Shown: positions 602 through 35,720 of the stretch, in pieces
How positions within the stretch are numbered: position 1 is the stretch's first letter
Layout: every line of letters starts with the position of its first letter
Source: a virus
IMG/VR virus record: IMGVR_UViG_3300035138_000142
Span: 1-36,933 of that record
Strand: one strand, 5' to 3'
Length of the DNA: 36,933 bases
Notes under the pieces: generated by a model
Database searches by the model: none
What the model was told of the DNA's origin: nothing
Seen by the model: only the letters and a program-made list of their open reading frames with translations
Program-made: the position numbers and the translations under genes

Positions 602-610
602 AGCGCACTC

Positions 611-1228
611 CTAATGTCTTTTATAAGCGTTTATATACTCCACTCGAAACGCGATTATACCATAATTACCTGCAGTACCTAAAAATTTTAACGTCCAGTA
701 ATGTGATGGTCTTCTTTTTAATGTTGTGTTTTCCAGCGGCCAAAATGAAAAACTTAAGGTTCCGGAATCCCCCTGTGCCGTATCCATGGCAAAGAATGTT
801 TCAGCCTCATTAGCATTAGCCTCACCCAAACCTGTATTATTTGCCAGTGAAATATAAACCGTATCACAGCCGGAAAAAGTAGACGTATCCGTATAACTCT
901 TGCCAAGCGCAGCGCTGAATAAGGTATCATCGCAGGTTACCGTTCCATGTATCCATACCATCCCCTGGGATCTTAGTACGGGAATATAAATGAGCATACT
1001 GTCGCCTCTTGCAAGGTGCAGTTCCTCGTTATAAAAAAATGAAAAGCTATCGTTTGAAGCAGTGTAATTCAGCCCGTCAATATCGTTCATGTCAAGGTAT
1101 TCATTCTGCCCATACCCCATAGACAAAAATAATAATAGCAATATGAAAGCACACAATCTCCCCCCTGTCAAGGGGGGACTAAGGGGGGTGTTATTAACTT
1201 TAGCCTGAACCTTTAATATACTTTTCAT
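611..1228 (-). CDS. Secreted hypothetical protein with an A-type element translated in its N-terminal region
   Basis: ATG 1228 overlaps the upstream stop (ATGA). N-terminus reads MKSILKVQAKVN-NTPLSPPLTGGR-LCAFILLLLFLSMGYGQ, signal-peptide-like. Confidence 0.7.
   Translation of the reverse strand: MKSILKVQAKVNNTPLSPPLTGGRLCAFILLLLFLSMGYGQNEYLDMNDIDGLNYTASNDSFSFFYNEELHLARGDSMLIYIPVLRSQGMVWIHGTVTCDDTLFSAALGKSYTDTSTFSGCDTVYISLANNTGLGEANANEAETFFAMDTAQGDSGTLSFSFWPLENTTLKRRPSHYWTLKFLGTAGNYGIIAFRVEYINAYKRH
1158..1192 (-). repeat. A-type palindromic element
   Basis: ctcccccctgtcaaggggggactaaggggggtgtt: C6, 6-nt loop, G6, ACTAA, G6, TGTT. Confidence 0.9.
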
Positions 1229-1815
1229 CTCTTATTCCTCCTGATTAAAACAAAAAATCCGATAATTAATATGATAGCGCTAACCACCACGCCAATTCCG
1301 ATTGATTTCCAGTAATTAGATTTGTCAACCTCCACAGGCACCGTACTGGTAATCACTATTGTCTTTTGTGGATAAGTAAGCGAATCCAGGCGTACCCGTT
1401 GGATTAGCTGATTCTCCCTGATTTCATTCTTCAGCGTCAAATAAACAATCGTAGAATCCCGCTGCAAAGGCAAAACCATTTCCCGTTCATATATTAATTG
1501 CTGGGGTTTCCCCCCTGTAAAGGGGGGATCAAGGGGGGTGTCTTTAATCTCGCGCTGAGAATTAACCTCATACACCTCCACAACCTCCACCGGCGCCGCT
1601 TCCGCAATCGTCACCGGTTTTGAAATACGCACAACCTTTGTCTTCGCCTGCTGGCATTCCTTAAGTTTGTGCTCCATATCCACAAACCGCGCCTTCCAGT
1701 TCACACACCCGCTTATTGTAAAGACAATTAATAACAACAGTATTGCCAATCTCCCCCCTGTCAAGGGAGGACTAAGGGGGGTATCTTTACGTAGAAACAA
1801 TAATATCGTCTTCAA
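1225..1815 (-). CDS. Putative lipoprotein with a C-terminal TM anchor; contains two A-type elements in frame; start uncertain
   Basis: Lipobox-like LLLLIVFTISGC and C-terminal hydrophobic IGIGVVVSAIILIIGFFVLI. The listed start at 1815 is TTG and overlaps the upstream gene by 29 nt. An alternative TTG lies at 1749. Confidence 0.6.
   Translation of the reverse strand: MKTILLFLRKDTPLSPPLTGGRLAILLLLIVFTISGCVNWKARFVDMEHKLKECQQAKTKVVRISKPVTIAEAAPVEVVEVYEVNSQREIKDTPLDPPFTGGKPQQLIYEREMVLPLQRDSTIVYLTLKNEIRENQLIQRVRLDSLTYPQKTIVITSTVPVEVDKSNYWKSIGIGVVVSAIILIIGFFVLIRRNKR
1508..1542 (-). repeat. A-type palindromic element, mid-gene and in frame
   Basis: ttcccccctgtaaaggggggatcaaggggggtgtc, translated as DTPLDPPFTGGK. 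Confidence 0.9.
1751..1785 (-). repeat. A-type palindromic element
   Basis: ctcccccctgtcaagggaggactaaggggggtatc. It begins 2 nt after the stop codon at 1787-1789. Confidence 0.9.
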
Positions 1816-2239
1816 TAGTCACCACACTTCCTTTCTCGTGTTGATGAAACGTTAGTGTAATCGTATCACCTGCCTTGTATTCGGCCGAAAATAATGACTC
1901 CAGCGGGATTGTAGCAGGATCAATAATACATTTATAATAATTTGAAGGATCTTTATAAAATTTGGGATACACCCGTACAGTTCTCCCGCTGTAAATGAAA
2001 TTTTGCAGGCTGGTAAGTTTATTAATAGTCGAATTGCCATGCACGCGAATAGTTACAAATATATCATACCACAAATCACCGATTAACAGAAGAGTAGGTT
2101 TTCTGTTTTGCGCCCGTTGTACTTTATTCTTTTGAGCAGGCACAACACTACCCTCCATACATTCGTACCGCTCAAAATCGATATTCCCGATGGGAGTCCC
2201 GCTTGAATTAACTTTTGTTATTCTTACACCAGTTGCCAT
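1787..2239 (-). CDS. Hypothetical tail-region protein (150 aa)
   Basis: ATG 2239 abuts the upstream stop (TAAATG). Sits in the distal tail module. Confidence 0.65.
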   Translation of the reverse strand: MATGVRITKVNSSGTPIGNIDFERYECMEGSVVPAQKNKVQRAQNRKPTLLLIGDLWYDIFVTIRVHGNSTINKLTSLQNFIYSGRTVRVYPKFYKDPSNYYKCIIDPATIPLESLFSAEYKAGDTITLTFHQHEKGSVVTIEDDIIVST

Positions 2240-2680
2240 TTATACACCTATCGCAATCCATGAAATGCGCCGGATATCATTAGCGTCCGGATTGCCGTTT
2301 ATATTACTGTATATTTTGCATTCGGTCGACGTAATATCTCCCACATAAGGACAATCAATATTCCCCGCAGTAACACTTAATCCAGTTGGACTCACCATAT
2401 CACCAACCACAACTAAAGGTGCTGTAGTAAATCCCGGATCACCGAAATCACTATCCGTAGCAAATGTGACAGTTATACTCTGAAATCCCGTACCCCCAGG
2501 GTATGTTATATCCGCTATGCCATGCGCTATTTTATAATTATCAGAGCCAATATCCGGCCCGCCCTCTGGTTTATATTTATAATTATGCTCAGTATTATCC
2601 TTCATCTGGTTAAGTTTAGTATCGCTGACTAACTCATTATCCCAGTCCGATGGATTGCTGAACGCAGGATTATATACCAT
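2240..2680 (-). CDS. Hypothetical tail-region protein (146 aa)
   Basis: ATG 2680 preceded by AGAGGA. Located downstream of the large distal tail protein. Confidence 0.65.
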   Translation of the reverse strand: MVYNPAFSNPSDWDNELVSDTKLNQMKDNTEHNYKYKPEGGPDIGSDNYKIAHGIADITYPGGTGFQSITVTFATDSDFGDPGFTTAPLVVVGDMVSPTGLSVTAGNIDCPYVGDITSTECKIYSNINGNPDANDIRRISWIAIGV

Positions 2681-2713
2681 TATAATTTCCTCTTGTTATT
2701 AGTGTCCTAATAA

Positions 2714-2743
2714 TTCCCCCTTTGAAGGGGGATAGGGGGTTGT
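2714..2743 (-). repeat. A-type palindromic element (C5/G5 version), intergenic
   Basis: ttccccctttgaagggggatagggggttgt. Confidence 0.85.
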
Positions 2744-2753
2744 AAATTCTTAT

Positions 2754-4550
2754 TTACCATGTAACTTTACCCCTGTCAGTGTAATCAACATCAGTAAATG
2801 CGTAATTACCGAATGTAAAATCTTTATCATAAACATTAATTTTAATATCACCGTTGCTAATATTTTTACTCAATTGAAAAATTTCAGTCAGTTTTTCACC
2901 CAGTACAGGATGATCTGAACTGATCTTGTATTGTTCATTCAGATCAAAAGCGATTCCGGTACCCCATTTTTCTTTAATAGAATATTGATTTACCCCCCTG
3001 CTCCACATACGATAAATACGCGCTGTAGAGGATCGTCCCGGCGCTCTGTCTGATGTGTGATATGCCGGAAAATTTAAATTTAAGAATGCTCCGATCTGAT
3101 CAGCCCCCGGGGGAAGTAATATCTGGCTGGCATAATCCCCCTCATCATGAGCAAAGGCATATTTTGCCTTTATCCGCTGTATCCTGCCCTCGTCTGTGAT
3201 ATCCATAGTCATTATATCAGCGTCCGGAGATAATGTATACACCGTCCCCGGCTCTTGTTGAGGTCGGTAGGAGCTGATGGCAAATTCACCATCATTATTA
3301 TGAAATACACAAGCATTGATATGTGCCTGTAATAACTCAATCGCCTTTAATACGGAGATCTTTTTAGTAAACGTAATCGCCCCGTGACAACTCTCAAACT
3401 CATGCCGGATAGTAGTCCAGGACGTTGTATCCAGATCACCCGTGCTGAGGTCCGCTCCAAAATCTTCAATTAAAATTCTGTACAGTATTTCCGGAATATC
3501 CGTATAACTGTTTGCCCCCGCCCCCAGCGCGCATGTTGTTTTAAACTCAAAAAGATCACCCTTATCATAATCCGTACCGTCCCAGGCAGATGAATTAATA
3601 AGCAGTTGATGTGTGGGAGAACTACCAATATAGAAATTAGAAGAAACATCCCCCCCCGTATATTCAATACCGTCAGGGTCCGTAACCTTGTAATCCTGTG
3701 AATCACTCGTAAATTCCAGTGTCCAGTCGCCAATTTTGCAATGAGAATCATTAATTGTAATTTCATTCATATCCAGAAGCCCCCCAGAGGCCGGATCTTC
3801 CTCCCGTTTTATCTCCAGCGTGTTAGTATAATTACCCAGGGAGTCTGTCAGTATTTTGTAGGAGTTTGCCTTAAGGTCAATATCCAGTAACTTGCTGAAA
3901 TTGTCATACAATGTGATTTCAGCGCCATCTGCGGTTAGCCGTGGATGCTCTTTAAGCACACCCACAAATTGAGTGATCTTTTCACTTTCACCCGTCCAGC
4001 ATGTCTTAACCGTAATTTCCTTGCCAGGCAGGTAACGCGTTTCCACCATAGCCCCGGCGTCGTAACCCGTAAGCACATTGCCGGTTAAGTTAATCCGGTC
4101 ATAATAGCTATATGATGTTGTGTCAACGCTGCTGATTGTACGCTCTGAATAATTAGATCCGTCTCTTATAACAATCGTTGTTACATTTGCGTGATCAAAT
4201 TTGTCGCCATCGCCCTTTGGCACATCAATATAGGATTGATTCCAAACACACGAAGTATACAACCGTGATGAAGCAAAATAGAACGTCGAGCCTTTTGAAT
4301 TCCGGTTAAAAAAATCACCTGTATTCACACACTTGATTTTCACCTCACCAATACTGAAAGCGCCCAACCTGCCATATGGATAGATACTTTTCTTTTTATT
4401 TATAATAATATTACTGTCCGTATCAATGTAATCCGTAAGATCAATATTATACCCCGATGGGTCCAGTATTATCTCCGTATACCAGGCTTTGATAATATCC
4501 TTTTTTAAGATCGCCTGCAGATTGGCGTGTAGTTCGTCAACATGCGGCAT
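2754..4550 (-). CDS. Large distal tail / host-interaction protein (598 aa)
   Basis: Start overlaps the tape-measure stop (ATGA). The call rests on size and on its position directly after the tape measure protein. Contains a G8 coding-strand homopolymer at 3650-3657. Confidence 0.6.
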   Translation of the reverse strand: MPHVDELHANLQAILKKDIIKAWYTEIILDPSGYNIDLTDYIDTDSNIIINKKKSIYPYGRLGAFSIGEVKIKCVNTGDFFNRNSKGSTFYFASSRLYTSCVWNQSYIDVPKGDGDKFDHANVTTIVIRDGSNYSERTISSVDTTSYSYYDRINLTGNVLTGYDAGAMVETRYLPGKEITVKTCWTGESEKITQFVGVLKEHPRLTADGAEITLYDNFSKLLDIDLKANSYKILTDSLGNYTNTLEIKREEDPASGGLLDMNEITINDSHCKIGDWTLEFTSDSQDYKVTDPDGIEYTGGDVSSNFYIGSSPTHQLLINSSAWDGTDYDKGDLFEFKTTCALGAGANSYTDIPEILYRILIEDFGADLSTGDLDTTSWTTIRHEFESCHGAITFTKKISVLKAIELLQAHINACVFHNNDGEFAISSYRPQQEPGTVYTLSPDADIMTMDITDEGRIQRIKAKYAFAHDEGDYASQILLPPGADQIGAFLNLNFPAYHTSDRAPGRSSTARIYRMWSRGVNQYSIKEKWGTGIAFDLNEQYKISSDHPVLGEKLTEIFQLSKNISNGDIKINVYDKDFTFGNYAFTDVDYTDRGKVTW

Positions 4551-6499
4551 CAGTCAAACTCGCTTTTTTCATTAGTTGTGCTTAAAAATTCGTTATGATA
4601 ATTGGTATCAGGGATGTTCACGTCCCTGTTCACTTTTATGTGATAATCCTTTACCCGCAAAAGATCGGGCTCAACGGCTTCAATCGTAATCTTGCCCTGC
4701 AGCAGGTTGTTTTTATTAGTAACCCTTTCGCTGTATATGCTGGTTGATGAACCGGTATTCAGTGCCATAGCCGGTTGCGTAAGCGGGTTGAATTCCGCAG
4801 TTACCGTCGGAGTGGTATTGAGTACGCGCCCTGTACCGACTCCGCCGCCGGTACCTGATGAGAATAAAGAGCCAAATACATTGCCTGAGCCGGGTACTAT
4901 AATATTAGCCAGAATGTTTAGAAAGGTTTTTACCAGTTGAGAGGTAATAAATTCGAGAATTTGCCTTTTCAGGTCTTTAAAAAAATCATTCCATATTTCC
5001 TTGCCGGTTTTTGCGCCCTCTGCCATATCCGCCGCCCATTGCTGCATTGGTCCCTCAAATATAGAACCGATTTCCCAGGCAATACGCTTGGCATTTTCCA
5101 GTTCTTCCTCTGTAGCCCTATCTATGAGTTCCTGGCGATATTCCAGCAAATACGCGTATTCCTCTTCCCTGCCGCGCCAGATTTCCAGCAACTGATCGGT
5201 TGTGGCTATTGCCGTTTCAATATCCGTTTCGGCCATGGTCTCCAAACCGGCTACATTCCTGTCAAAAAGAGTGGAAAGGAATTCTTCATTCTGCTTGTCT
5301 ATATCTTCAATCTGCTGTTGATTTCTTTGATAGATATGCTGCATTGCCGTGTCGTACTGTTCAGCTATCTGCATTGCCGCTTTAAGGGCTTTTTTAGCCG
5401 CTGCGTCATCGTAAGTTATTTTTCCGCCTCCCCCGCCTGTTTTATTAACCTCTGTTTTTTTGTTTATCAATTGATCTAGCGCGGTAATCTCGGCGTTGAT
5501 GTTTTTAATTTCCTCTTCATAAAACTTTTTGTTATGCTCCGCCGCCTCATCCAGGTCAAATAGATTTTCGAACCAGCTTTTTCCTTCGCTGTTCATTTGT
5601 TGAATATCTTTATTGATCTTTGCCAGTTCTTCCTGCGCCTCAGTCAGTTCCTTTATTTTTTCTGCCTTTTGCTCCTCTGGTGTAGAACTGATCATGTCAT
5701 TGAAATTATGTAATGCTTTTGCCGCAGAATTAAAGAAATCATCGATTGGTGTTTCTATCAGTTTCCCCAGTGCTACTTTCAGGTTATCAAGAGAAGCCGA
5801 CATCTGCCCCTGCTTGACAATAGTGCCTTCGGTCACTTCTCCCAGCGTCTTATTTTTTATAGCCATCTGCTCCAGCGCCACCGCAACAAGTTTAGCCTTC
5901 TTCTCAATCGGGCCCAAACCCTTAAACATTTTATCATTCTGGTTGATCATTATTCCCACATCATCCAGAAATAACGTACTGCCACGCTGCAGACCGGTGA
6001 ATACCGTGCGCATCACCGTGTTAAAATCTTTACCGAATTTTACCGAATACCGGTAAAGGAATTCCATCGTCTTCTGAGTAGACTCAAACGCCTCAGCCGG
6101 CTTAATGCCCGACGCCGTAAACGCGTCCATTGCCTGTGCAGCCCGCTGCATCAGTTCCACATCACTGGCCGTGCCGTTAACCGCTTTACGAAGATTATTT
6201 AAGGCGTCAATGCTATCCTTACCCGCAAGCTGTACCAGGCGTTTAAAAGGTAGCTCCACCTGCCGCGCCGCGTCCGCCATCTTTGCCAGCTCAACCGTAT
6301 ACTCCGCGGCCTGCTTAAGAGCATATACACTCACAAAACCAGTGAGCGTTCTTCCTGCAGCACTAAATACCTTATTGACGTTCTTGCCGCTCTTGGCAAT
6401 ATCATCAATATTATTATCGAGTTTATTTAGTTTTTTTATCGAGTCCTTTAGTTGCGTTTCAACAACCAGTGGGACTTTCGCTTCTTTTCGGCGAGCCAA
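4550..6499 (-). CDS. Tail tape measure protein (649 aa)
   Basis: Long helical, coiled-coil-like sequence with a Gly-rich C-terminal part (GSGNVFGSLFSSGTGGGVGTG). TTG start preceded by GGAGGTG. Position follows the tube and chaperone genes. Confidence 0.8.
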   Translation of the reverse strand: MARRKEAKVPLVVETQLKDSIKKLNKLDNNIDDIAKSGKNVNKVFSAAGRTLTGFVSVYALKQAAEYTVELAKMADAARQVELPFKRLVQLAGKDSIDALNNLRKAVNGTASDVELMQRAAQAMDAFTASGIKPAEAFESTQKTMEFLYRYSVKFGKDFNTVMRTVFTGLQRGSTLFLDDVGIMINQNDKMFKGLGPIEKKAKLVAVALEQMAIKNKTLGEVTEGTIVKQGQMSASLDNLKVALGKLIETPIDDFFNSAAKALHNFNDMISSTPEEQKAEKIKELTEAQEELAKINKDIQQMNSEGKSWFENLFDLDEAAEHNKKFYEEEIKNINAEITALDQLINKKTEVNKTGGGGGKITYDDAAAKKALKAAMQIAEQYDTAMQHIYQRNQQQIEDIDKQNEEFLSTLFDRNVAGLETMAETDIETAIATTDQLLEIWRGREEEYAYLLEYRQELIDRATEEELENAKRIAWEIGSIFEGPMQQWAADMAEGAKTGKEIWNDFFKDLKRQILEFITSQLVKTFLNILANIIVPGSGNVFGSLFSSGTGGGVGTGRVLNTTPTVTAEFNPLTQPAMALNTGSSTSIYSERVTNKNNLLQGKITIEAVEPDLLRVKDYHIKVNRDVNIPDTNYHNEFLSTTNEKSEFD

Positions 6500-6550
6500 A
6501 TAACACCTCCATGTGTATGGCTACATCCCTGTTTATATTTCCCCGCTCTA

Positions 6551-6586
6551 TCTCCCTCTTAGCAAAGGGGGATTAAGGGGGTTGTT
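6551..6586 (-). repeat. A-type palindromic element, intergenic
   Basis: tctccctcttagcaaagggggattaagggggttgtt. It ends 1 nt from the stop codon at 6588-6590. Confidence 0.85.
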
Positions 6587-6587
6587 A

Positions 6588-6884
6588 TTACGGTCCTGTA
6601 CTTAACTTCAATCCAAAAAAAGTGCCTCCGCCGGCTAATGCTAATAATGCAGCCCATATCAGCCTAGATATCCAATTTTTCACTTTTTTCCGCTCCGGAT
6701 CAATAGTATTTTTCTTCCATTGCTCTAAATGATCCACCCGTTTCTCTATTTTTGTAAACAATCCAGTTTCCGGATCATATAACTTTTTATATTGGCTTCT
6801 CTGCTCAGCCAGTATTTCTTTAATATTCGTATTAATATCATTTATTACTGGATTGTCCTCGAACCTCGATTTTGTTGCTGCCAT
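6588..6884 (-). CDS. Hypothetical protein with a C-terminal TM segment (98 aa)
   Basis: ATG 6884 with a GAGGG upstream. C-terminus reads LIWAALLALAGGGTFFGL. Confidence 0.6.
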   Translation of the reverse strand: MAATKSRFEDNPVINDINTNIKEILAEQRSQYKKLYDPETGLFTKIEKRVDHLEQWKKNTIDPERKKVKNWISRLIWAALLALAGGGTFFGLKLSTGP

Positions 6885-7015
6885 GCCTGCGCCCTCATTT
6901 GTTCGTTTTGTTTATTTTGCGTTTCATTAAACAATTGCGTATAACCTTTTAAATTCAGCACATTTAAAGTCTTCGTAAAAAACGATAGCGGCATATGTGT
7001 GTGAATGCTCAGCAT
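6845..7015 (-). CDS. Possible -1-frame ORF (56 aa) following the chaperone-like gene
   Basis: ATG overlaps the TGA of ORF 7015..7503 (TGATG). It lies in the -1 frame and overlaps the start of 6588..6884. Q/N-rich. No canonical slippery heptamer was seen. Confidence 0.25.
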   Translation of the reverse strand: MLSIHTHMPLSFFTKTLNVLNLKGYTQLFNETQNKQNEQMRAQAWQQQNRGSRTIQ

Positions 7016-7497
7016 CAGTGCAATTTCCGGCCAAGTCCATGCTGCACCGTTGCCAGCGCTTCCTGCAGTATCGCTCTCTGCTGCGCAATCGAGTTTTTTT
7101 TTAACGCCGCATACATTTCATAAAGCGCCCTGCCGTAATTCGCTTTCTGTGCCGAAGGAATTATTTGCATTTTTTCACGTATTTTTTGCCCGTATTCCTC
7201 TTCCGTAAGATTCGGGATCACATCATTGTGCTGTTTTTCAAGAATAAAAAGCATCTCTGCAATATGCGCGGGATCGTCAAAATCAACATTCTGAACACCG
7301 CCGAAACGTTTCTGCACTTCCGCTTCCGCCCACAGGTTAGGATAAGGAATATTGATTTTATTATTAAAACTAAAGTGTTTCTCCATCATCAGAGACATCG
7401 CCTTTATCCGCTCAACAGAGCGCTTTCCCTTCCACTCTTCCTTTTTCTCGCGGATCTTCTTTATCTTATCCTGAAACTCCCAGAATTTTTTATGCAT
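7015..7497 (-). CDS. Putative tail assembly chaperone (assigned by position)
   Basis: Lies between the tube-like gene and the tape measure. ATG 7497 sits 6 nt after AAGGAAGG; the track start at 7503 is TTG. Confidence 0.5.
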   Translation of the reverse strand: MHKKFWEFQDKIKKIREKKEEWKGKRSVERIKAMSLMMEKHFSFNNKINIPYPNLWAEAEVQKRFGGVQNVDFDDPAHIAEMLFILEKQHNDVIPNLTEEEYGQKIREKMQIIPSAQKANYGRALYEMYAALKKNSIAQQRAILQEALATVQHGLGRKLH

Positions 7498-7527
7498 CTT
7501 CAACCTTCCTTATTTTCCCCGCATCTG

Positions 7528-7566
7528 CTCCCCCCCCTGGCAAGGGGGGATTGAGGGGGGTGTTTT
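7528..7566 (-). repeat. A-type palindromic element (C8 arm), intergenic
   Basis: ctcccccccctggcaaggggggattgaggggggtgtt. Confidence 0.9.
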
Positions 7567-7576
7567 TTGTAAGACT

Positions 7577-7609
7577 TTCCCTTGTTAAAAAGGGCTATAG
7601 GGTTGTTAA
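7577..7609 (-). repeat. Degenerate A-type element (C3/G3 arms), in tandem with 7528..7566
   Basis: tttcccttgttaaaaagggctatagggttgtt has the same architecture with shortened runs. It ends 4 nt from the stop codon at 7614. Confidence 0.6.
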
Positions 7610-7613
7610 CTTA

Positions 7614-8348
7614 TCACGGAAAAAACAACTGTAAATCACCGTCATTATCAATCCGGATGCTGAAATCAAAACCCGGAGTGCTTATATTCCCTACAGCGCC
7701 GCCAAGCCCAAATTCACCTGTACGCTCACATTTAGCCGCAAGAATAGCCAGATCTCCCTTAACATCTGTAAACAATTCCTTTGTTCTTAAGGCGCCCTGC
7801 AGTTCAAATGAACTTGGTAAATCCGTTGGATTAAATGAAAGTGTTTCCCCGTCTGCCGCATCCGCGTAAATATAAGAAACCTCAATCACCGTAGTATCCG
7901 CAAATGTTCCCGTATTAAATGTAATAGTAGTCCCACTCACCTGGTATTCATCGGCAGACGATGGCGCGCCCGAAACCTGTTTCAAAGGCTGCTTACTGGC
8001 GCCCTTTTCAATAACCCGCATACTGTTTGTTATCGGAGTCTCTGAAGCTGTCACCGTATTGCTCGAAACACTTAATTCCTCTGAACGCTTTCTCTTCCTG
8101 GTAGCGCCCGATGTAATACTGCCTCCCGTTAATGCCGCTATAACACTCGCGTTAGAGCCAAGAAAACCAGCCCTGCCCGTAACTGGTTGCGAAGTAGGAA
8201 TTACAATATTTCCACCTCCATCACCCTTAGGTGCGCTGATCGATTCTAATCCAAAATTAATTGCCAACTCCTGGATCTCAAACAGTTCCACGCCATCAAT
8301 AAAGGCAACACCTTCACCCCATAATATTTGATTTAAATTCTGTGGCAT
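7614..8348 (-). CDS. Putative major tail (tube) protein (244 aa)
   Basis: Assigned by position upstream of the chaperone and tape-measure genes. ATG preceded by GGAGG. Confidence 0.5.
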   Translation of the reverse strand: MPQNLNQILWGEGVAFIDGVELFEIQELAINFGLESISAPKGDGGGNIVIPTSQPVTGRAGFLGSNASVIAALTGGSITSGATRKRKRSEELSVSSNTVTASETPITNSMRVIEKGASKQPLKQVSGAPSSADEYQVSGTTITFNTGTFADTTVIEVSYIYADAADGETLSFNPTDLPSSFELQGALRTKELFTDVKGDLAILAAKCERTGEFGLGGAVGNISTPGFDFSIRIDNDGDLQLFFP

Positions 8349-8380
8349 TTTTATAAACCTCCATATTATTTATTTCCATT

Positions 8381-8431
8381 TCCCCTTTTCTGTAGGGGCA
8401 GTGCCTTGCGCCTGCCCTTAGGGGGTTGTTG
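8381..8431 (-). repeat. Composite element: a B-type GTAG hairpin occupying the first G-run position of an A-type element
   Basis: tccccttttc tgtaggggcagtgccttgcgcctgccc tta ggggg ttgtt. The stem GGGCAG/CTGCCC is perfect. Confidence 0.85.
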
Positions 8432-8445
8432 TACTTAACCTCAGC

Positions 8446-8703
8446 CTAAACCTTGACCTCAATTATTGAACAAACCCGGTGCTGTAAATCTTTCCTGGCC
8501 AGCGCTAGCTGTGTAGGTGTCGGCTTCTTGATAATATCATCCTTGAACATATCCTTGCCAAACATCCGTGTCTTTACAGCATTAATCCGTATCCACTTTT
8601 CTCCACCGCTTTTGTCTCCCTCCGGTAAGGGGGGATTAAGGGGTGTATTTTTACTTTTACGGTGGGACGACGCCCCCTGCCCCAACTCCTTTTTGTCTTC
8701 CAT
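8446..8703 (-). CDS. Hypothetical protein (85 aa) with an A-type element translated in frame
   Basis: ATG 8703 preceded by AAGGTGGA. Contains NTPLNPPLPEGD. Overlaps the upstream ORF by 47 nt. Confidence 0.55.
   Translation of the reverse strand: MEDKKELGQGASSHRKSKNTPLNPPLPEGDKSGGEKWIRINAVKTRMFGKDMFKDDIIKKPTPTQLALARKDLQHRVCSIIEVKV
8615..8648 (-). repeat. A-type palindromic element
   Basis: tctccctccggtaaggggggattaaggggtgta. It lies just downstream of the stop codon at 8657. Confidence 0.85.
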
Positions 8704-9154
8704 ATATTTCCACCTTTATATCTAAATGTGCTATTTCAAAAAATCCTTTTGTTCGCTGATATCCAGGGAACGGTGGTATGATTTCAGCATTATCAACATA
8801 AATTACATCCACCTTATTGCTTAAACCGGCACCGTAACCATCCTCCGGATTTTCATTTAATAGTTTTTGAATAATTAATGAAACAATCTGCTTCACCTCA
8901 TCATCAATAACAGAGATATCACCGCCATGGTGAACCACCTCAATAAGACCACGCAGTTCAATGAACTTGCCTTCCCCATTATCCGAATAACCGGTAAAAT
9001 GCGTTGCACACGCCGGCAACTCTGTTTTGCGGTACTTCTCAATATCACCTTTCAGTTTCACATGAAAATAATTAACCAAATCCGAAATATCCTCATCAGC
9101 AGATAACAGCGTATTAAGTTGAGATTCCACCTCATTAAACATATCATCAAGCAT
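8657..9154 (-). CDS. Hypothetical head-tail joining region protein (165 aa)
   Basis: ATG 9154 overlaps the upstream gene by 8 nt. Function is inferred from position only. Confidence 0.6.
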   Translation of the reverse strand: MLDDMFNEVESQLNTLLSADEDISDLVNYFHVKLKGDIEKYRKTELPACATHFTGYSDNGEGKFIELRGLIEVVHHGGDISVIDDEVKQIVSLIIQKLLNENPEDGYGAGLSNKVDVIYVDNAEIIPPFPGYQRTKGFFEIAHLDIKVEIYGRQKGVGAGGVVPP

Positions 9155-9656
9155 TGCCCAACCTCCTTATAGCCATATCACGTAAAACATCAATATCCTT
9201 AGGCTCCTCAAAAAACTGGTATGCTCGCATCCTGTGTTGATATCCCGCGTAATTCACCTTGGTATCCATCTCTATTTTAGATTTTGACATCCGCATAAAA
9301 GCCAGTGCAGCGCTTGAGAGCCGACCCGTATCCCTCATCAAATTAGATGAACGTGTCACTCGTTTGCCGGAATGACGTTTACGCCCTTTTACCAGGCCAT
9401 TGCCACGTACCTTGGGCACACCACCCTCAGCCGGCACAATAGTACCATCCTTGCGTGTGTACTGCCGTGCAAACCACATCCAGCCAACACCACGGAAACT
9501 GGTACCACCGCTTTTCAACCGTTCAAACATCAGTTGCACACGGCGCATCATGTACACGTGGAAATTGGTGAATACCGGCCGCATGTCCCGCAGCCTGCCC
9601 TTAGTATCTTTCAATGTCAGTTTTACCTGACTATCATCAACCTTAATCCTGATCAT
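9147..9656 (-). CDS. Putative virion morphogenesis / tail completion protein (Mu gpG-like)
   Basis: The N-terminal pattern (DSQVKLTLKDTKGRLRDMRPVFTNF..) and the position after the connector genes resemble the phage virion morphogenesis family. This is a by-eye call. Confidence 0.5.
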   Translation of the reverse strand: MIRIKVDDSQVKLTLKDTKGRLRDMRPVFTNFHVYMMRRVQLMFERLKSGGTSFRGVGWMWFARQYTRKDGTIVPAEGGVPKVRGNGLVKGRKRHSGKRVTRSSNLMRDTGRLSSAALAFMRMSKSKIEMDTKVNYAGYQHRMRAYQFFEEPKDIDVLRDMAIRRLGNA

Positions 9657-9723
9657 TTACCACTCCGCTATAAATTCAAAATTTGAAAGATCTATTAAAC
9701 ATGTCATTCCCCAGCGCATAGGT

Positions 9724-9775
9724 ACCCCCTTTATTGTAGGGGCTGGCCTTGTGCCTGCCCTTAGGGGATTGTTAT
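9724..9775 (-). repeat. Composite A/B element, intergenic
   Basis: accccctttat tgtaggggctggccttgtgcctgccc tta gggg attgtt. Confidence 0.85.
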
Positions 9776-9845
9776 TTTTCCCTTCTAAAATCGTTATTCC
9801 CTGTTCATTATTCGACATTCTTTTTTTCCTTCGCGTTTCTTCGCG

Positions 9846-10334
9846 TTAAGGACACAACGTATCCAATTCCTCATGATCAAACCTCGCTTTGGGATCCTCA
9901 TCATCCTCATAAGTTTCATCTTCATACGATTTCAAAGCAGTGCCTTTTATGTTGGATCCGGAAATCTCAACAGTTTTTTTACCGCTTTCAATGTCCTCCA
10001 AAATCTTCTCCGCCTTTTTTTCAAACAATACAGAATTCAGATCCTCATCCTCTTCCGAGCGGATCCCTTCCGCTACCTCGAGACGCAAGTATTGTAACGA
10101 CACTGCATAATAACGCGCAGCCTGTTCAATAATAGCCGGTGTAGCAGGATCACTGTCTATCTCCGGGAATTTCTGCGTACTGCTTTCATAGGAAAACGCA
10201 AAACGGGGACCTACACCGCTCTCCACCAAAGCACTGGCCGCGGCAATATCCGTGGTCGTGTTATTCGTAACCGCTTCCGGAAGATTTGACGGCAGATGCG
10301 CTAGTACTAATGATGATGTCGTATAAGTTGGCAT
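9846..10334 (-). CDS. Putative head-tail connector/adaptor protein (162 aa)
   Basis: TAATG overlap with the upstream gene. Position follows the capsid genes. Acidic C-terminus. Confidence 0.5.
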   Translation of the reverse strand: MPTYTTSSLVLAHLPSNLPEAVTNNTTTDIAAASALVESGVGPRFAFSYESSTQKFPEIDSDPATPAIIEQAARYYAVSLQYLRLEVAEGIRSEEDEDLNSVLFEKKAEKILEDIESGKKTVEISGSNIKGTALKSYEDETYEDDEDPKARFDHEELDTLCP

Positions 10335-10636
10335 TAAGCAATAACTCCCTCATTCCAGAGACGTTCCAGTTGTTTGTCATCCAGTTTCCCAAGGTTTACC
10401 CGCTTTTTACCGGCAGGAAGTCTCTCTCCCTGGTACTTCAGATCATGTACAATGTCGTATTCTTTTTTCTTTACAAAAGGACTTTGTACGGTTTGCGCCG
10501 GCTTTTTTGCTGATGCTGTTTCCAGTTGCATCACCCTTTTAGTTAATTCAGCTACTTCAGCCGCCAGTGTTGTAAAATTTTCAACCGTTACCTCAGCGTC
10601 CGCTTTTACATCCGGTTTATTTTTATCTTCCGACAT
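10334..10636 (-). CDS. Hypothetical protein (100 aa); start trimmed to the internal ATG
   Basis: ATG 10636 preceded by AATGGAGGAA. The longer track ORF (to 10726) merely reads through the repeat elements. Confidence 0.65.
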   Translation of the reverse strand: MSEDKNKPDVKADAEVTVENFTTLAAEVAELTKRVMQLETASAKKPAQTVQSPFVKKKEYDIVHDLKYQGERLPAGKKRVNLGKLDDKQLERLWNEGVIA

Positions 10637-10664
10637 TTTTTTCCTCCATTTTGCACCCCGATAA

Positions 10665-10696
10665 TTCCCCCTTAATAAAGGGGGATAGGGGTTGTT
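10665..10696 (-). repeat. A-type palindromic element (C5/G5), adjacent to a B-type copy
   Basis: ttcccccttaataaagggggataggggttgtt. Confidence 0.85.
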
Positions 10697-10698
10697 AT

Positions 10699-10724
10699 TG
10701 TAGGGGCTCGGCGTTGCCGCGCCC
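10699..10724 (-). repeat. B-type GTAG-headed GC-rich hairpin (REP-like)
   Basis: tgtaggggctcggcgttgccgcgccc: 9-bp stem with one mismatch and a GTT loop. Confidence 0.85.
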
Positions 10725-10731
10725 AATTAAT

Positions 10732-11097
10732 CTAATCCGTAGCGCTATACCCGTTACGAACAATCATATAATTATACTTATCCGTGCTGGCTGTGCATGT
10801 GTCCTCTGTAGTCACAAAAATTGTATCGCCCGCAGTGGCAATATCGTAGTAGAGTTCCCCTGTATTCGATGTCTTTCCGGTCAGAAAGACTAGACACAAA
10901 GTATCTACGTTTGAGATAACCAGTGTATCCAGCAAGCCCGTTGTGCCCCAGTCACGCTGCCCGACGAATTCCTCATCTTTACCGAATAGCCAACCCTTAA
11001 CCTTGAAATTATGTCCTTCGGTGTAAGATTTAACGGCGCCCACCGCTATGATCGCACAAAGCAGTATAAGTAATATTGTTGTTAATTTTTTACTCAT
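10732..11097 (-). CDS. Hypothetical signal-peptide or membrane-anchored protein (121 aa) inside the head module
   Basis: N-terminus reads MSKKLTTILLILLCAIIAVGAV. Confidence 0.65.
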   Translation of the reverse strand: MSKKLTTILLILLCAIIAVGAVKSYTEGHNFKVKGWLFGKDEEFVGQRDWGTTGLLDTLVISNVDTLCLVFLTGKTSNTGELYYDIATAGDTIFVTTEDTCTASTDKYNYMIVRNGYSATD

Positions 11098-11106
11098 AAT
11101 ATCCTC

Positions 11107-12051
11107 CTATGCTGCTACGTCACTGATCAGATAACCATTGGAAGTACTGATGTTTTTTACCTGGTAACTGCGTGTAACTTCATAACCAACCGTCTTTTCC
11201 CTGTCAAATGTTTCCACAACAGGATATCCCTTTTCTTCAATCACAACGGTATGCGGAGTAGTGCCTTCTACCAGTTCATCTTTCGACGGCGTATAGATCA
11301 ATGCAACCGAATCACCCCACAAGCGTGTAAAGACGCCTGCATCCGTAGAATAAATAGATCGACCTACAAAGATTTTTTCAAAATCAAGAAGATCAGCAAG
11401 AAGTTCAGGCGTTACTTTTGCTTTCATGGAATATTTTATTTTTTCAGTGATGGCCGGATGATTCTTTAATGTCCGGAATGCCTGGTATCCCATAACCAGT
11501 GTGTTCGGCTCTACGCCCATATCGGCCTGTGCCGCATCAATCCCCGTTTCAATATCTCCGATCGGGTCAGAATTGTCTACATCACTCCATTGATCGGTGC
11601 CGGTTAGTGTCGTCTTGTTTCCCGTAGCGTAGTAAGTTGCACCTAAAATTATATCTGCAATAGATTTTTCCAGTTCCCGCTCAATTAGATCCTGCACAAA
11701 TGTAACCGCCCGCTGTTCTAATTTTAGTACCTGTGCTGCGCCATATTTTTTTGCCTGTTCAATTTCTTTTTTCTTGTCAAGTTCAGTGCCGAGCGCATGT
11801 TCAGCGCAGGCGTAAGTGTCGCTGGAAATCGCAAAATCTACCTTGTTTGCATTGGTGCGTGGAGCGCGCTCCGTATTGTAAATCTTAAATCCCTCTTTGC
11901 CAAAACCAAAGATAGATCCTGTTTCAGTTAACGATTCAATGACCGGCGCTACCAGCCTGCCTATAAATCCTCTTTTGCCGCTATAACCCGTTGCAAACTG
12001 TGTTAAAATCGGGTTAGTAGAAGCAGCTATTGTTTTTGCTCTTGAAGCCAT
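11107..12051 (-). CDS. Major capsid protein (314 aa)
   Basis: Size and position after the protease/scaffold and decoration genes. GGAGGT upstream of ATG 12051. No search was run. Confidence 0.65.
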   Translation of the reverse strand: MASRAKTIAASTNPILTQFATGYSGKRGFIGRLVAPVIESLTETGSIFGFGKEGFKIYNTERAPRTNANKVDFAISSDTYACAEHALGTELDKKKEIEQAKKYGAAQVLKLEQRAVTFVQDLIERELEKSIADIILGATYYATGNKTTLTGTDQWSDVDNSDPIGDIETGIDAAQADMGVEPNTLVMGYQAFRTLKNHPAITEKIKYSMKAKVTPELLADLLDFEKIFVGRSIYSTDAGVFTRLWGDSVALIYTPSKDELVEGTTPHTVVIEEKGYPVVETFDREKTVGYEVTRSYQVKNISTSNGYLISDVAA

Positions 12052-12081
12052 AATTATTTAACCTCCATGTTATTTAATTCC

Positions 12082-12423
12082 CTATGTCAACATTACCCGC
12101 AAAAAGGTTCCATCCGTTGCAGCGTCCATAGCAACACCACAAATTTTAATCGCGTCATTGACATTGTCATAAGTCAGCGAAACCGCTTTTCCATCAGCGT
12201 CCATACTAACATAAGCGCCAGCCGCTATAGTACCGCCCGCCTCTACAACCGCAATACCAGAGCATTGCACAGTAATAGGGTCGCCGCTTGCAGTATCAAA
12301 AAGCGCAACACCTATTCCTCGGATATCTACAGTATGCGTACCATTTGCCGCGACAAAACGGTTTGCAGTAATTGCCTCAGCAGCAGTTACCGTGACCTTT
12401 GGTCCTAATTGATAAGATTTCAT
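12082..12423 (-). CDS. Head decoration-like protein (DUF2190-like, 113 aa)
   Basis: Small Gly/Ala/Val-rich beta-type sequence directly upstream of the capsid gene. Resemblance to the DUF2190 family was judged by eye. Confidence 0.55.
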   Translation of the reverse strand: MKSYQLGPKVTVTAAEAITANRFVAANGTHTVDIRGIGVALFDTASGDPITVQCSGIAVVEAGGTIAAGAYVSMDADGKAVSLTYDNVNDAIKICGVAMDAATDGTFLRVMLT

Positions 12424-12489
12424 TATTATTTCTCCTCAACTTTGTTTTTTATAAACTACAATTGAAATAACTTTCATTAATTAAGTCAC

Positions 12490-13779
12490 TCACTCTTTTT
12501 TATCTGCGAGTGCAAAGATATGTTTGGTGTACGCTTCCTGAAATTTCTCACCTTCTGTCTCTCCGGTTTCCTTAACAGCAAGTTTCACCGCCTGCTCATG
12601 AGATTTTTGTTTATCATCTGAATTACCAAAACTCTCCAGCGGATCTCCATTCTTGCCATCCTCAGATTCACCAAAAGAAACAAAAAGTTTACCTCCCTCA
12701 GCATACTCCACTATTTCCTCGATAAGCGACTGGAAAAACTCCATCTGTGATTTTTCCACCTCCTTACCCTCTTCCTGGAATTTTATGGTCTGTGTGCTGT
12801 CCACAGGGATACTTTCCATAAAAGGTACAACAAGCGAATCAACGATAGCCGGCACAACGCCCGACTTATCGCTGTATTTCTTTAATTTTTCAGCAAAGGA
12901 TGTAATGGCACTCTTGTGAGCGTTCTTTTTGGCTTTCTCCTGCTCTTCCTTATACTGCTTATTCTGAGCAATGGCCTCCTCCGGATACACCCCGTGCTCT
13001 TCCTTGAATTGTTCACGCTGTTCATCTTTAACAGCTTTCAATTCTTCCTCAGTGAATTTTTTTGACATTTTATTTTCCTCCTTGAAATTATTTGCCTCAT
13101 CACCAATTAGTTCTGTACTTTGAGTTAAAATCTCTTTTATTGCGGTTGATTTTTCATCATCCGATTTATCCGATTTCCCTAAAACGGCATAAACGAGATC
13201 AATTATTTTATATAATAGTTTTGTAGCCATGTTAACATTCTCATCCAGGTTTACGGCCGCTTCAACATTCACCTCTTGGAATTTTCCCTGTTCATCAACC
13301 GAAAATACAAACTGATCCACATCCTCATTTTGAGCAAACTCCATTGGTGGAAGTTTGTGGAAAGGTGCTGTCTTCCCTAATAATGCAAGCCCGCCGATCC
13401 GTGTATTATCATTTCGTGGAATCTCAACAGATCTATATGGATATTTCCTCTTTTTAAGACTCTGTTCAAAAAAATCAGGTTGCACTTTAATAATGTCTGT
13501 AATGAGATATTCACCCTCGAGTTTAAAATTATCCAAAAAACCTCTCGCAGCCTCATCCTCATCATTTAATACAACATCGTCACCACCATGCCTTACAAAT
13601 GCGGTAGGTAAATAGCCGGTATCATCTTTCATTTCTTGTTGTTTTGCAATAGTAGCCTGTGCCCATTCCTCATCATATTTTTTTCCACGGTGTTTACCTA
13701 AAACAAAGATCTCAACATCATGAATATTAATTGTTCCATCTTCATTTTCTGTAGTTTTATACTCTTTAAATAATTTCAT
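12490..13779 (-). CDS. Putative prohead protease / scaffolding protein
   Basis: Lies between the MuF-like and capsid genes. The C-terminal half is highly charged (E/K-rich) and scaffold-like. ATG 13779 follows AGAGGAA; the track start at 13806 is GTG. Confidence 0.5.
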   Translation of the reverse strand: MKLFKEYKTTENEDGTINIHDVEIFVLGKHRGKKYDEEWAQATIAKQQEMKDDTGYLPTAFVRHGGDDVVLNDEDEAARGFLDNFKLEGEYLITDIIKVQPDFFEQSLKKRKYPYRSVEIPRNDNTRIGGLALLGKTAPFHKLPPMEFAQNEDVDQFVFSVDEQGKFQEVNVEAAVNLDENVNMATKLLYKIIDLVYAVLGKSDKSDDEKSTAIKEILTQSTELIGDEANNFKEENKMSKKFTEEELKAVKDEQREQFKEEHGVYPEEAIAQNKQYKEEQEKAKKNAHKSAITSFAEKLKKYSDKSGVVPAIVDSLVVPFMESIPVDSTQTIKFQEEGKEVEKSQMEFFQSLIEEIVEYAEGGKLFVSFGESEDGKNGDPLESFGNSDDKQKSHEQAVKLAVKETGETEGEKFQEAYTKHIFALADKKE

Positions 13780-13812
13780 AACTAATTCCTCTATTTCATT
13801 AGGCACAAAACC

Positions 13813-13838
13813 TGTAGGGGCTGGCCTCGCGCCTGCCC
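13813..13838 (-). repeat. B-type GTAG-headed hairpin (REP-like)
   Basis: tgtaggggctggcctcgcgcctgccc. Confidence 0.85.
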
Positions 13839-13858
13839 GTTTCCAGGATATTTATTTC

Positions 13859-14146
13859 CTATAATATTGACATTATCCCTGTTATATAACCCAGCCCATT
13901 CATGACCATATCCTCAACACAACCGCGCAATGTCTGACCTTGCTTTTTGATTTGCCACCCTTCATAAATCAAGGCTATAATTAACAGCACCGCCGTATAA
14001 ACCTGCATCTGCCAGCACTCCATGGTCGTAACACCAATAAACTTGATATAATACACCGTACAGGTAACCACAATGAAGAAATGCCACGGTGCGCCCCAAT
14101 TCAGCCGCGTCCGGTACTCAAGCCATATATTAAATTCTTTCCACAT
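13859..14146 (-). CDS. Small multi-pass membrane protein (95 aa) flanked by two B-type elements
   Basis: About three hydrophobic segments. ATG 14146 preceded by GGGAG. Confidence 0.6.
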   Translation of the reverse strand: MWKEFNIWLEYRTRLNWGAPWHFFIVVTCTVYYIKFIGVTTMECWQMQVYTAVLLIIALIYEGWQIKKQGQTLRGCVEDMVMNGLGYITGIMSIL

Positions 14147-14157
14147 ATTTTTTCTCC

Positions 14158-14183
14158 CGTAGGGGCTCGGCGTTGCTGTGCCC
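14158..14183 (-). repeat. B-type GTAG-headed hairpin (REP-like)
   Basis: cgtaggggctcggcgttgctgtgccc. It starts 1 nt after the stop codon at 14185-14187. Confidence 0.85.
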
Positions 14184-14184
14184 T

Positions 14185-14961
14185 TTAATGAACAAACTCA
14201 AAATCCTTCCCTGTTAAACTCGGCCTCCAGCCGCTATCCTGTGCACCCTCATCCTTATGCACAGCCGATTTACTACAGCGGCAACCATGAGCCAGCGGGT
14301 AACGCATCCGGTTCCAGATAGGATCATTAACCGGAGCAGTAAAACCATTCAATTTTCCATGATCCTTCCGTTGCCTGCCATCCATAATCGTATGATGCTG
14401 CAAGAACGGAAACTCATTCGTATCCATTTCTCCGAATATCTTATCCTTACCCGCGTTCATAGCCTCCTGGGTGGCATTCCGGAAAACCGTATCCAGGTAA
14501 TAATCATTTGCCACAGTGATACCCTGTTTATCAAATAATAATTGTATATCTTTTTTCCAGTCATCCAGACTTATACCCTTTTCAATAGCGCTATCCAGTG
14601 ATTCCTTGACCTGTTTTATAATTGTTTCCTTTTCAGTAACCGCCAGGCTAAACGCCTGTTTCCTCATATCAGCAACCAGAGCCTTGAATTCATCCGATGT
14701 CACCACCTCTTTAGCCAGAAAAAAAGCCACCGCCTCATCATAAGCCGACGGGATACCCTCAGAAAAGACTTCTTTCCCCCCTGTAAAGGGGGGATTAAGA
14801 GGGGTGTTTTCTGCAAAATATTCCGCTCTTTTTCTGTTCAGGCTCTTTTGCGTCAAATACCTTCCTGTAAGATTGGCCAGCACCATAGCCTCCGCCAACG
14901 TCCTCGTTGGGGCGTGGTTTCCGCGCCCTCTGGCCAAATAATATTTCTTCATAACCTTCAT
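14185..14961 (-). CDS. Minor head protein, Mu F / SPP1 gp7-like, with an A-type element translated in frame
   Basis: C-terminal HHTIMDGRQRKDH...PLAHGCRCS motif. ATGA coupling to the portal stop. ENTPLNPPFTGGKE is inserted before the conserved domain. Confidence 0.8.
   Translation of the reverse strand: MKVMKKYYLARGRGNHAPTRTLAEAMVLANLTGRYLTQKSLNRKRAEYFAENTPLNPPFTGGKEVFSEGIPSAYDEAVAFFLAKEVVTSDEFKALVADMRKQAFSLAVTEKETIIKQVKESLDSAIEKGISLDDWKKDIQLLFDKQGITVANDYYLDTVFRNATQEAMNAGKDKIFGEMDTNEFPFLQHHTIMDGRQRKDHGKLNGFTAPVNDPIWNRMRYPLAHGCRCSKSAVHKDEGAQDSGWRPSLTGKDFEFVH
14774..14810 (-). repeat. A-type palindromic element inside the MuF-like CDS
   Basis: ttcccccctgtaaaggggggattaagaggggtgtt. Confidence 0.9.
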
Positions 14962-16409: not shown

Positions 16410-16416
16410 TTAGCAC

Positions 16417-17118: not shown

Positions 17119-17156
17119 TCCCCATTCCCCTTAATAAAGGGGGTTAGGGGGTTGTT
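17119..17156 (-). repeat. A-type palindromic element; its 5' flank overlaps the TerL stop codon
   Basis: tccccattccccttaataaagggggttagggggttgtt(ca). Confidence 0.85.
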
Positions 17157-35571: not shown

Positions 35572-35720
35572 AGTATTTCCTTTTAATGTAATCCTATCCA
35601 ATCAGAAGTATTTTCAACGGTTGTCTACGGCCGGTTAACAAAATCCGGCCAGACCGGAAAACCTTTCCACCCCTCCTTACCAAAACAAATCGTACAAAAC
35701 AACAGTATAAAAAATATTAA

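Follow-up and report, generated by a model that had tools for sequence, protein, structure and literature searches.

A palindromic repeat, probably of the REP/RPE type, in the late operon of a temperate phage and in frame within its MuF-like head protein

Repetitive extragenic palindromic (REP) sequences and Rickettsia palindromic elements (RPEs) are the closest described counterparts of the repeat treated here. Both have been documented inside bacterial genes, and for REPs an additional role as RNA elements downstream of open reading frames (ORFs) has been reported (PMC3733652). In this work, the IMG/VR virus record IMGVR_UViG_3300035138_000142 was analyzed over its full 36,933 nt (hereafter the window); it represents a temperate tailed phage whose genome measures approximately 36.8 kb and has almost all of its genes on the minus strand. 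A short palindrome, which we call E1, occurs in this window between genes as well as in frame within genes, the clearest example being the gene for a Mu F-like (MuF) minor head protein. We consider it probable that E1 is a REP/RPE-like non-autonomous palindromic repeat that is tolerated in linkers and signal-peptide n-regions, and not a dedicated leader.

On the minus strand, E1 reads (T)AAnAACA-C6-TTAAT-C6-TTnACA-G6-A and measures approximately 30 to 45 nt, or 75 nt in the copy at 503, where a 39-nt insert is nested in the loop and the frame is kept (copies are named after their first nucleotide). Its archetypal form, CCCCCCTTAGTCCCCCC-loop-GGGGGGACTAAGGGGGG, is a hairpin with a perfect stem of 17 bp. 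As with RPEs, multi-copy palindromes are found between genes and in frame in functional genes, to which they add a short protein segment (PMC3733652). However, RPEs are approximately 100 to 150 bp long, CGTC-tagged and restricted to Rickettsia, whereas E1 with its 30 to 45 nt has C6/G6 arms, lacks CGTC and is spread over many phyla. In-frame insertion into genes that stay functional was found in the MuF-like protein and in ORF 1225-1815 of the window and as clean indels elsewhere in the family; the comparison with RPEs drawn by a first-pass annotation of this DNA was apt. The likeness to REPs, BIMEs and REPINs lies in GC-rich imperfect palindromes of 20 to 40 nt that are multi-copy, transcribed, mostly situated downstream of ORFs in operons and sometimes intragenic (PMC3733652, PMC12306157, PMC3116915). 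A second repeat family of the window, E2, even carries the REP-defining GTAG tetranucleotide beside its palindrome. In contrast, E1 ends in AACA / TGTT without GTAG, its phage copies are co-oriented with no inverted doublets, and a RAYT gene was neither present in the phage nor seen beside E1 in bacterial loci, where DUF559 genes abut E1. Elhai and colleagues reportedly described in 2008 the small dispersed repeats (SDRs) of Nostocales, hairpin-forming sequences of 21 to 27 nt that are nested in one another and in other repeats and were argued to be mobile. E1 is similar in its nesting and its abundance in Nostoc and Microcystis, but its range reaches far past heterocystous cyanobacteria. Among phage-specific regulatory or recombination sites, the promoter-early stem-loops (PeSL) found in T4-type phages and the cluster A mycobacteriophage stoperators resemble E1 as short, co-oriented, multi-copy motifs at gene boundaries; to our knowledge, they are neither shared with bacterial chromosomes nor translated in structural proteins.

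In total, 11 E1 copies were counted (503, 1158, 1508, 1751, 2716, 6553, 7531, 8616, 10666, 14775, and 17123), besides two composites of E1 and E2 (8382 and 9725). The strict pattern CCCC-N3-7-CCCCC-N4-10-GGGG matched seven distinct sites where 0.01 were expected from shuffles, with the C-arms on the minus strand in all of them, and a repeat finder clustered six to eight of the copies. Since the sequence agrees to 100% with that of an independent assembly (Logan SRR11698124) across 19.3 kb, the copies are not assembly artefacts. All C-run/G-run hairpins are confined to positions 1-17200 and 35717, which corresponds to the late operon, and none was found in the 18.5-kb early half. Nine of 15 distinct sites are clearly intercistronic, mostly 0 to 10 nt past a stop codon. 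Stable hairpins of −16 to −35 kcal mol−1 are predicted for E1, with modest fold z-scores of −0.8 to −3.2. No U-tract follows them (the 3' flanks read AGATTG, AAAGAAG, AATTAT or AATGGGG, with no T-run on either strand); they are therefore not intrinsic (Rho-independent) terminators, and this reading was dropped. A promoter reading of the TTGACA loop was also discarded, as no −10 box was seen by eye at 17 nt. An Rfam 15 search of the whole window (E ≤ 1) gave no relevant match, and a tRNA search of the window yielded nothing relevant. MITEs are marked by terminal inverted repeats and a target-site duplication and derive from an insertion sequence. When the flanks of all copies were inspected, no consistent direct duplication was found; E1 is itself palindromic, and no parent insertion sequence was identified.

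The in-frame position is best documented for the MuF-like protein. As the first-pass annotation had pointed out, its start codon (ATG 14961) and the stop codon of the portal gene share the sequence ATGA, and no start lies between the element and the conserved block; the first in-frame start past the element, GTG 14730, is already within IPSAYDEAV. Homologues (43–46% identity) and the orthologue of a related phage contig, L008, can be aligned over the N-terminal helix region LAEAMVLANLTGRYL..KRAEYF as well as over the block IPSAYDEAVAFF. Between them, the E1 residues fall into a variable linker, and the 12 residues are absent from the homologues, two of which (P0002, P0003) show a 19-residue gap at this position while two others (P0004, P0005) have an unrelated short linker. 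Because the element is flanked by homologous sequence on either side, with no start codon separating the two parts, we regard the translation of E1 in this protein as firm on sequence grounds. A shallow AlphaFold2 model of low confidence (pLDDT 47), used for secondary-structure context only, places residues 51–72 in a coil between two helices. The predicted peptide of the MuF-like protein across the element reads ..YFAENTPLNPPFTGGKEVFSEG.., and a further predicted peptide across an element reads ..EIKDTPLDPPFTGGKPQQ...

All six E1 copies listed by the first-pass annotation are present at the coordinates given there, on the minus strand, and give peptides of the NTPL.PP..GG type in the frame of the spanning ORF. 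From these, translation in at least five proteins from well-supported starts had been concluded. Two of these cases are firm, three are likely and one is doubtful, and at least two copies perhaps go back to a single duplication. Apart from MuF, the copy at 1508 in the middle of ORF 1225-1815 is very probably translated: it lies in a 197-codon open frame, the JGI gene call covers the element, and the codon-usage log-likelihood of its flanks is positive in frame (+12.8/+31.8 and +10.8/+32.7). Moreover, the lipobox and the C-terminal membrane helix make sense only if this ORF is one polypeptide. Its layout, with a lipoprotein signal (..FTISGC) at the N-terminus and a transmembrane helix plus a basic tail at the C-terminus, appears to resemble a unimolecular spanin, which would imply a Gram-negative host. 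Homologues of this ORF and of ORF 611-1228 were not found in IMG/VR, and a search of ORF 1225-1815 against a set of 5.8 billion proteins matched only itself.

Translation is likely for the copies at 503, 1158, and 8616, whose ORFs start at ATGs with apparent Shine-Dalgarno (SD) sequences. ATG1228 is preceded by AGGAGG at 8 nt, overlaps the upstream stop as ATGA and opens an uninterrupted frame, while ATG601 follows AGGAG by 6 nt and the copy at 503 has just one open frame. ATG8703 has the SD AAGGTGGA at 6 nt, and the gene caller predicts the 85-aa ORF 8446-8703; compared by BLASTP with its positional counterpart in L008, this ORF gave no significant match, so that only position and hairpin are shared. 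The claim of well-supported starts therefore stands for MuF, ATG601, ATG1228, and ATG8703, but not for TTG1815 with its weak and distant SD. The copy at 1751 is in frame with ORF 1225-1815 only from TTG1815 or TTG1800, the JGI caller starts this ORF downstream of the copy, and its translation is uncertain. The leaders at 1158 and 1751 are, however, alike beyond E1 on both sides (xTGAAxAxxATATTA upstream, ATAyTGyTrTTATTA downstream), which supports a start at TTG1815 and the duplicated leader module that had been suggested earlier. The copy at 10666 is judged to be non-coding from its context, as the ORF 10334-10726 extended over it has its true start at ATG10636 with a GGAGGA SD and shows no codon signal upstream. 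As for the reading frame common to the coding copies, one alternative frame is always shut by TAA or TAG in the spacer and another by TGA in the TTGACA-loop copies. The frame argument of the earlier annotation is thus correct; the bias is largely due to stops, and the shared frame adds little information. Translational bypass or frameshifting across the hairpin is unneeded, as the 36 nt are in frame without a stop.

Beyond this phage, the core C6-TTAGT-C6-loop-G6 was found in at least 120 genome loci of many bacterial phyla. It is abundant in Cyanobacteria, Nitrospirae, Poribacteria, Chloroflexi, and Bacteroidetes, and Planctomycetes, Desulfobacterota, and Calditrichaceae are also among the matches listed. 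It also occurs in 14 metagenome contigs, the strict pattern is present in 15 IMG/VR viral contigs, and some bacterial copies are full 17-bp-stem palindromes. Palindromes of the GTAGGGGC type co-occur in many E1-bearing loci. As too many phyla carry the element, E1 does not point to the host of the phage. Of 136 listed matches, 43 fall within stop-to-stop frames that extend over 150 codons or more, and E1-bearing proteins confirmed by Pfam include a Ser/Thr kinase with AAA_16, an FGGY kinase, a histidine kinase, urease alpha, and an RPE65-family protein. In an Anaerolineae xylulokinase, the element forms a clean 14-residue insert compared to E. coli XylB (2itm). The bacterial copies are translated from either strand, as PPLxPP..GG or SPLxKGGLRGV. 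In-frame copies were also found in other uncultivated viral contigs, namely in a small terminase, a second MuF-like protein and a replication initiator (Table 1); in the small terminase locus, the orientation of the element relative to the gene is opposite to that in the window. With in-frame copies in bacteria and other phages, in-frame residence is therefore a trait of the family and not specific to this phage. The first-pass annotation knew of no in-frame palindromes in phage structural genes. This is true of the searchable literature, in which neither the E1 family nor its presence in phage proteins was found to be described, but comparable cases are present in other uncultivated phage contigs. 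Head-to-tail arrays of at least 13 E1 units with a 37-nt period and no spacers were observed on the Microcystis ichthyoblabe chromosome (L025) and also in L059 and L107. A kinase gene of Nostoc (L122) contains several E1 copies translated in tandem (ESPLTKGGLNPP repeated).

The ORFs of 134 loci, chosen solely for carrying E1, were clustered, and the sole recurring small nuclease was DUF559 (PF04480, Vsr-like). All six DUF559 ORFs of these loci have an E1-type palindrome upstream or just past the stop, and for five of the six a strict E1 lies within 150 nt or overlaps the stop-to-stop frame, compared to a background of 17% (binomial P = 8e-4). The Prevotella gene is accompanied by E1-type palindromes on both sides. 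Five further DUF559 homologues, picked only for their long contigs, all have such a palindrome at most approximately 100 nt upstream. In L167 and L168 another palindrome follows the DUF559 stop, and the flanks in L168 are near-identical composite repeats. For these comparisons the upstream DNA was examined, since gene callers start the DUF559 proteins downstream and their N-termini are uninformative. The arrangement resembles REPtrons, in which RAYT genes are likewise flanked by REPs, and DUF559 may be the enzyme behind the E1 repeat family. A DUF559 ORF was not found in the window or any viral locus, and the literature on DUF559 does not mention repeats. A wider proposal, which we find doubtful, is that E1 is part of an undescribed pan-bacterial mobile system, in which DUF559 nucleases (Vsr-like, PD-(D/E)XK) would spread or recognize C6/G6 palindromes in the manner of RAYTs and REPs, chromosomes and prophages would be colonized, and in-frame loops would be routine (enzymes, MuF, small terminase) owing to the Pro/Gly coding in all frames. 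In the phage studied here, the palindromes would in addition have been co-opted as intercistronic RNA hairpins of its late operon. If the DUF559 link holds, a role would be available for a very common nuclease family of unknown function, and the sharing of a repeat family across phyla would be explained.

Among relatives of the phage, the distribution of E1 is patchy. L008, with a portal 63% identical to that of the window, has five element sites. Three of them are intergenic and orthologous to sites of the window, including the junctions of 6553 and 9725. A further in-frame hairpin (IPLKKGG) is found in the small gene that precedes the tube gene and corresponds in map position to ORF 8446-8703. 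One L008 site lies at a junction that is empty in the window, and three sites of the window lie at junctions that are empty in L008. In four other contigs with the same gene order (L009, L012, L015, and L017), no elements were found. L010, with a portal identity of 45%, has an intergenic repeat of its own, AACACACCCC-GTGGCTAAAGCCAC-A-CCCCTC-TTATTA-GAGGGG, which is architecturally like E1. This contig also contains a second palindrome family, TTCCCAAGCCCCTGCTTGGGAA.

In our preferred explanation, E1 and E2 copies would have been acquired and amplified during lysogeny in a host bearing both families. The phage is temperate, with an integrase and a CI-like repressor, but has neither a transposase nor a DUF559 gene. 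The copies would then have been retained where they are harmless, that is in intercistronic spacers, linkers, and signal-peptide n-regions. The C- and G-runs give Pro and Gly in every frame, and two of three frames are free of stops, or one of three in TTGACA-loop copies. Together with a copy length that is a multiple of three (36 nt, or 75 nt with the insert), this coding property would let the element persist in genes that tolerate a flexible loop. Such tolerant sites would be the linker that joins the N-terminal helix to the MuF domain, the periplasmic portion of the spanin-like protein, and the signal-peptide n-regions, where the terminal AGA of E1 places an Arg before the hydrophobic core. 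Several observations weigh against this explanation. E1 lacks the GTAG and CGTC tags that define the known REP and RPE superfamilies. Neither a target-site duplication nor an empty-site polymorphism was found, and the sole other assembly with the same MuF is 100% identical; mobility in the phage is therefore an inference, as are the host origin, the neutrality of the peptide and an RNA role of the intercistronic copies, for example in stabilizing 3' hairpins or bridging stop and start. Finally, the translation of the N-terminal copies is deduced from SD/ATG logic, with TTG499, TTG1156, and TTG1749 after the G-run as alternative starts, and the co-orientation, late-operon confinement, and post-stop placement, as well as elements at four orthologous positions in L008 at approximately 60% protein identity, also fit a selected RNA function.

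Such a function is possible, though on the whole unlikely, as the main reason for the repeats: E1 and E2 would punctuate the late transcript by shielding upstream segments from 3' exonucleases, by setting processing sites or by folding the spacer so that the upstream stop comes close to the downstream SD and start. Copies within genes would then be by-products, or would serve as internal sites of processing or pausing. The repeats occur exclusively on the transcribed strand and within the late operon, most begin 0 to 10 nt past a stop codon, and they form the stable hairpins described above. At 17123, a predicted outer helix joins the stop region of the terminase to the sequence before the next ATG. 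The presence of elements at orthologous junctions in L008, the composites that preserve a two-tier hairpin architecture with a different inner hairpin, the variant of similar architecture in L010, and the reported action of REPs as RNA elements downstream of ORFs (PMC3733652) point in the same direction. However, the four element-free relatives with the same gene order indicate that the elements are dispensable for the late-operon design, and the lack of a U-tract and of an Rfam family, the modest z-scores, the opposite orientation in L164, and the same sequence within unrelated bacterial enzymes all argue against selection as punctuation. A selected RNA role and the repeat explanation are in any case non-exclusive.

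The remaining alternatives concern the coding copies. The first-pass annotation considered a coding feature, possibly a functional Pro/Gly leader. In favor of this, three adjacent genes carry the segment right before the hydrophobic signal core with a conserved ..GGR-L.., the leaders at 1158 and 1751 are alike beyond the element, and the AGA-encoded Arg gives the n-region a charge. In this case, NTPL.PP..GG(R/K) would be a secretion leader or linker module under selection at the protein level and spread by duplication. We find this very improbable, because no fewer than seven copies of this DNA do not code for protein and most copies are intercistronic, the nucleotide palindromy with its perfect C6/G6 stems is conserved and not the peptide, homologous MuF proteins work without the segment, and the bacterial copies give different peptides from either strand in unrelated enzymes. 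It is less far-fetched, but still improbable, that most of the listed copies are untranslated and only those in MuF and at 1508 are coding, with the true starts being downstream TTG codons that use the G-run as SD. The copies at 503, 1158, and 1751 have GGGGGGAGA-TTG after the hairpin, TTG499 is preceded by the G-run at a distance of 5 nt (predicted duplex −10.2 kcal mol−1), and the elements normally mark gene boundaries. The spurious ORF extended over 10666 and the JGI start of ORF 1225-1815 past the copy at 1751 fit as well. Against this, ATG601, ATG1228, and ATG8703 have canonical SDs and spacing like the confirmed phage genes, and since no stop interrupts their frame, any ribosome that initiates at these codons continues through the element. 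Furthermore, the G-run is spaced just 2 to 3 nt from TTG1156 and TTG1749, and the resulting signal peptides would be without a charged n-region.

Odd or extended N-termini and 'PPL..GG' or 'SPL.KGGLRG' segments are recognizable as repeat-derived in phage and bacterial proteins. Gene starts near repeats need care, since one ORF of the window was wrongly extended over an element and others appear to be genuinely read through. REP-like elements are not limited to chromosomes but populate a prophage late operon, where virion proteins gain loops and yet survive. Their positions naturally map where MuF, small terminase, and signal peptides tolerate insertions. For better comparison, the coordinates of all features are summarized in Table 1.

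Table 1. Positions of E1 and E2 sites, selected genes of the window and related sites in other contigs. Positions without a locus prefix refer to the window.
Feature	Position	Strand	Remarks
E1 with nested insert	503..576	-	n-region of ORF starting ATG601; INTPLNPS...
E1	1158..1192	-	signal-peptide n-region of ORF 611-1228 (NTPLSPPLTGGR); NTPLSPPLTGG(R)
E1, mid-ORF 1225-1815	1508..1542	-	DTPLDPPFTGGK; DTPLDPPFTGG(K)
E1	1751..1785	-	2 nt after TAA of ORF 1787-2239; DTPLSPPLTGG(R)
E1, short variant	2716..2743	-	intercistronic, between ORF 2754-4550 and ORF 2240-2680
E1	6553..6586	-	intercistronic, directly after TAA of ORF 6588-6884, before tape-measure gene
E1	7531..7564	-	intercistronic, between tail tube gene (7614-8348) and ORF 7015-7503
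E1	8616..8649	-	small ORF 8446-8703 (NTPLNPPLPEGD), ~10 nt after TAA of ORF 8657-9154; NTPLNPPLPEG(D)
E1, short variant	10666..10699	-	intercistronic, abuts E2 copy; next gene starts ATG10636
E1 in MuF	14775..14808	-	residues 52-63, NTPLNPPFTGGK; NTPLNPPFTGG(K)
E1, short variant	17123..17155	-	intercistronic, directly after terminase TGA
Composite E1/E2	8382..8430	-	E1 outer arms (AACAACCCCC ... AAAAGGGG), E2 (GTAG-type) palindrome in spacer
Composite E1/E2, second	9725..9773	-	L008 has plain E1 at orthologous intergenic site
E2	10695..10727	-	plus strand: GTAG plus imperfect palindrome GGGCTCGGCGTTGCCGCGCCC
E2	13813..13838	-	intercistronic
E2	14154..14186	-	directly after MuF stop codon
E2	35717..35760	-	AACA + C9 run before; downstream of ORF starting ATG601
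ORF with two E1 copies	1225..1815	-	lipobox signal LAILLLLIVFTISGC, C-terminal membrane helix
MuF-like minor head protein gene	14185..14961	-	Pfam Phage_Mu_F residues 116-230; phrog_220 from residue 73
Tape measure	4550-6499	-	late gene
Tail tube	7614-8348	-	late gene
Capsid	11107-12051	-	late gene
Mu-type portal	14958-16409	-	late gene
Large terminase	17156-18802	-	late gene
Small terminase	L164:7009-7554	-	two clean in-frame E1 inserts vs Terrisporobacter phage TVCOM_ph1
MuF-like protein	L163:740-2419	+	two E1 copies in C-terminal part
Replication initiator	L157:1990-2958	+	one in-frame E1 copy
L010 repeat sites	3336-3391, 12994-13049, 13862-13917 (L010)		also listed: 5861, 10953, 11007, 12923
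Loci with DUF559 abutted by E1-type palindromes	L054, L066, L075, L142, L147, L149, L166-L170		both sides in L075, L167, L168

The second family, E2, consists of GTAG and an imperfect palindrome on the plus strand and is REP-like as well. Six copies were found, two of which are nested in the composites, and GCCCCTAC was counted seven times where 0.47 were expected. At 20402-20447, between small early ORFs and the integrase gene, the plus strand carries the inverted repeat TGTAGGGG ... CCCCTAC, whose arms enclose a loop of 30 nt. Its termini are the same as those of E2, and it holds the sole GCCCCTAC copy on the plus strand.

Besides the late genes in Table 1, the late region encodes a holin-like ORF and an NlpC/P60 protein, and the remaining genes include the integrase, a primase, an HNH protein, and the CI-like repressor. 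Close cultured phage relatives were not found, with tblastn identities of MuF below 30%, and neither a Y1 transposase nor a DUF559 ORF was found among the scanned phage proteins. Both ends of the window share a 129-nt segment (21-149 and 36804-36932) with 92% identity and an 81-nt internal repeat. This segment falls inside the ORF that begins with ATG601, and the contig probably represents a circular genome that was opened in a repetitive gene. Three tandem CGCCCCTTAA copies at 19675-19702, just upstream of the ORF preceding the large terminase, could be a packaging or regulatory site. On the minus strand, positions 23229-24005 encode the HNH protein, whose two HNH_3 domains stem from a diverged 143-nt internal duplication (23416-23558 and 23758-23900). 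A leucine-rich repeat protein (Pfam LRR_1/LRR_4/LRR_8) is encoded at 34546-35601 on the minus strand with six 72-nt tandem repeats at 34716-35291; where the late region ends, its gene adjoins those of the secreted proteins.

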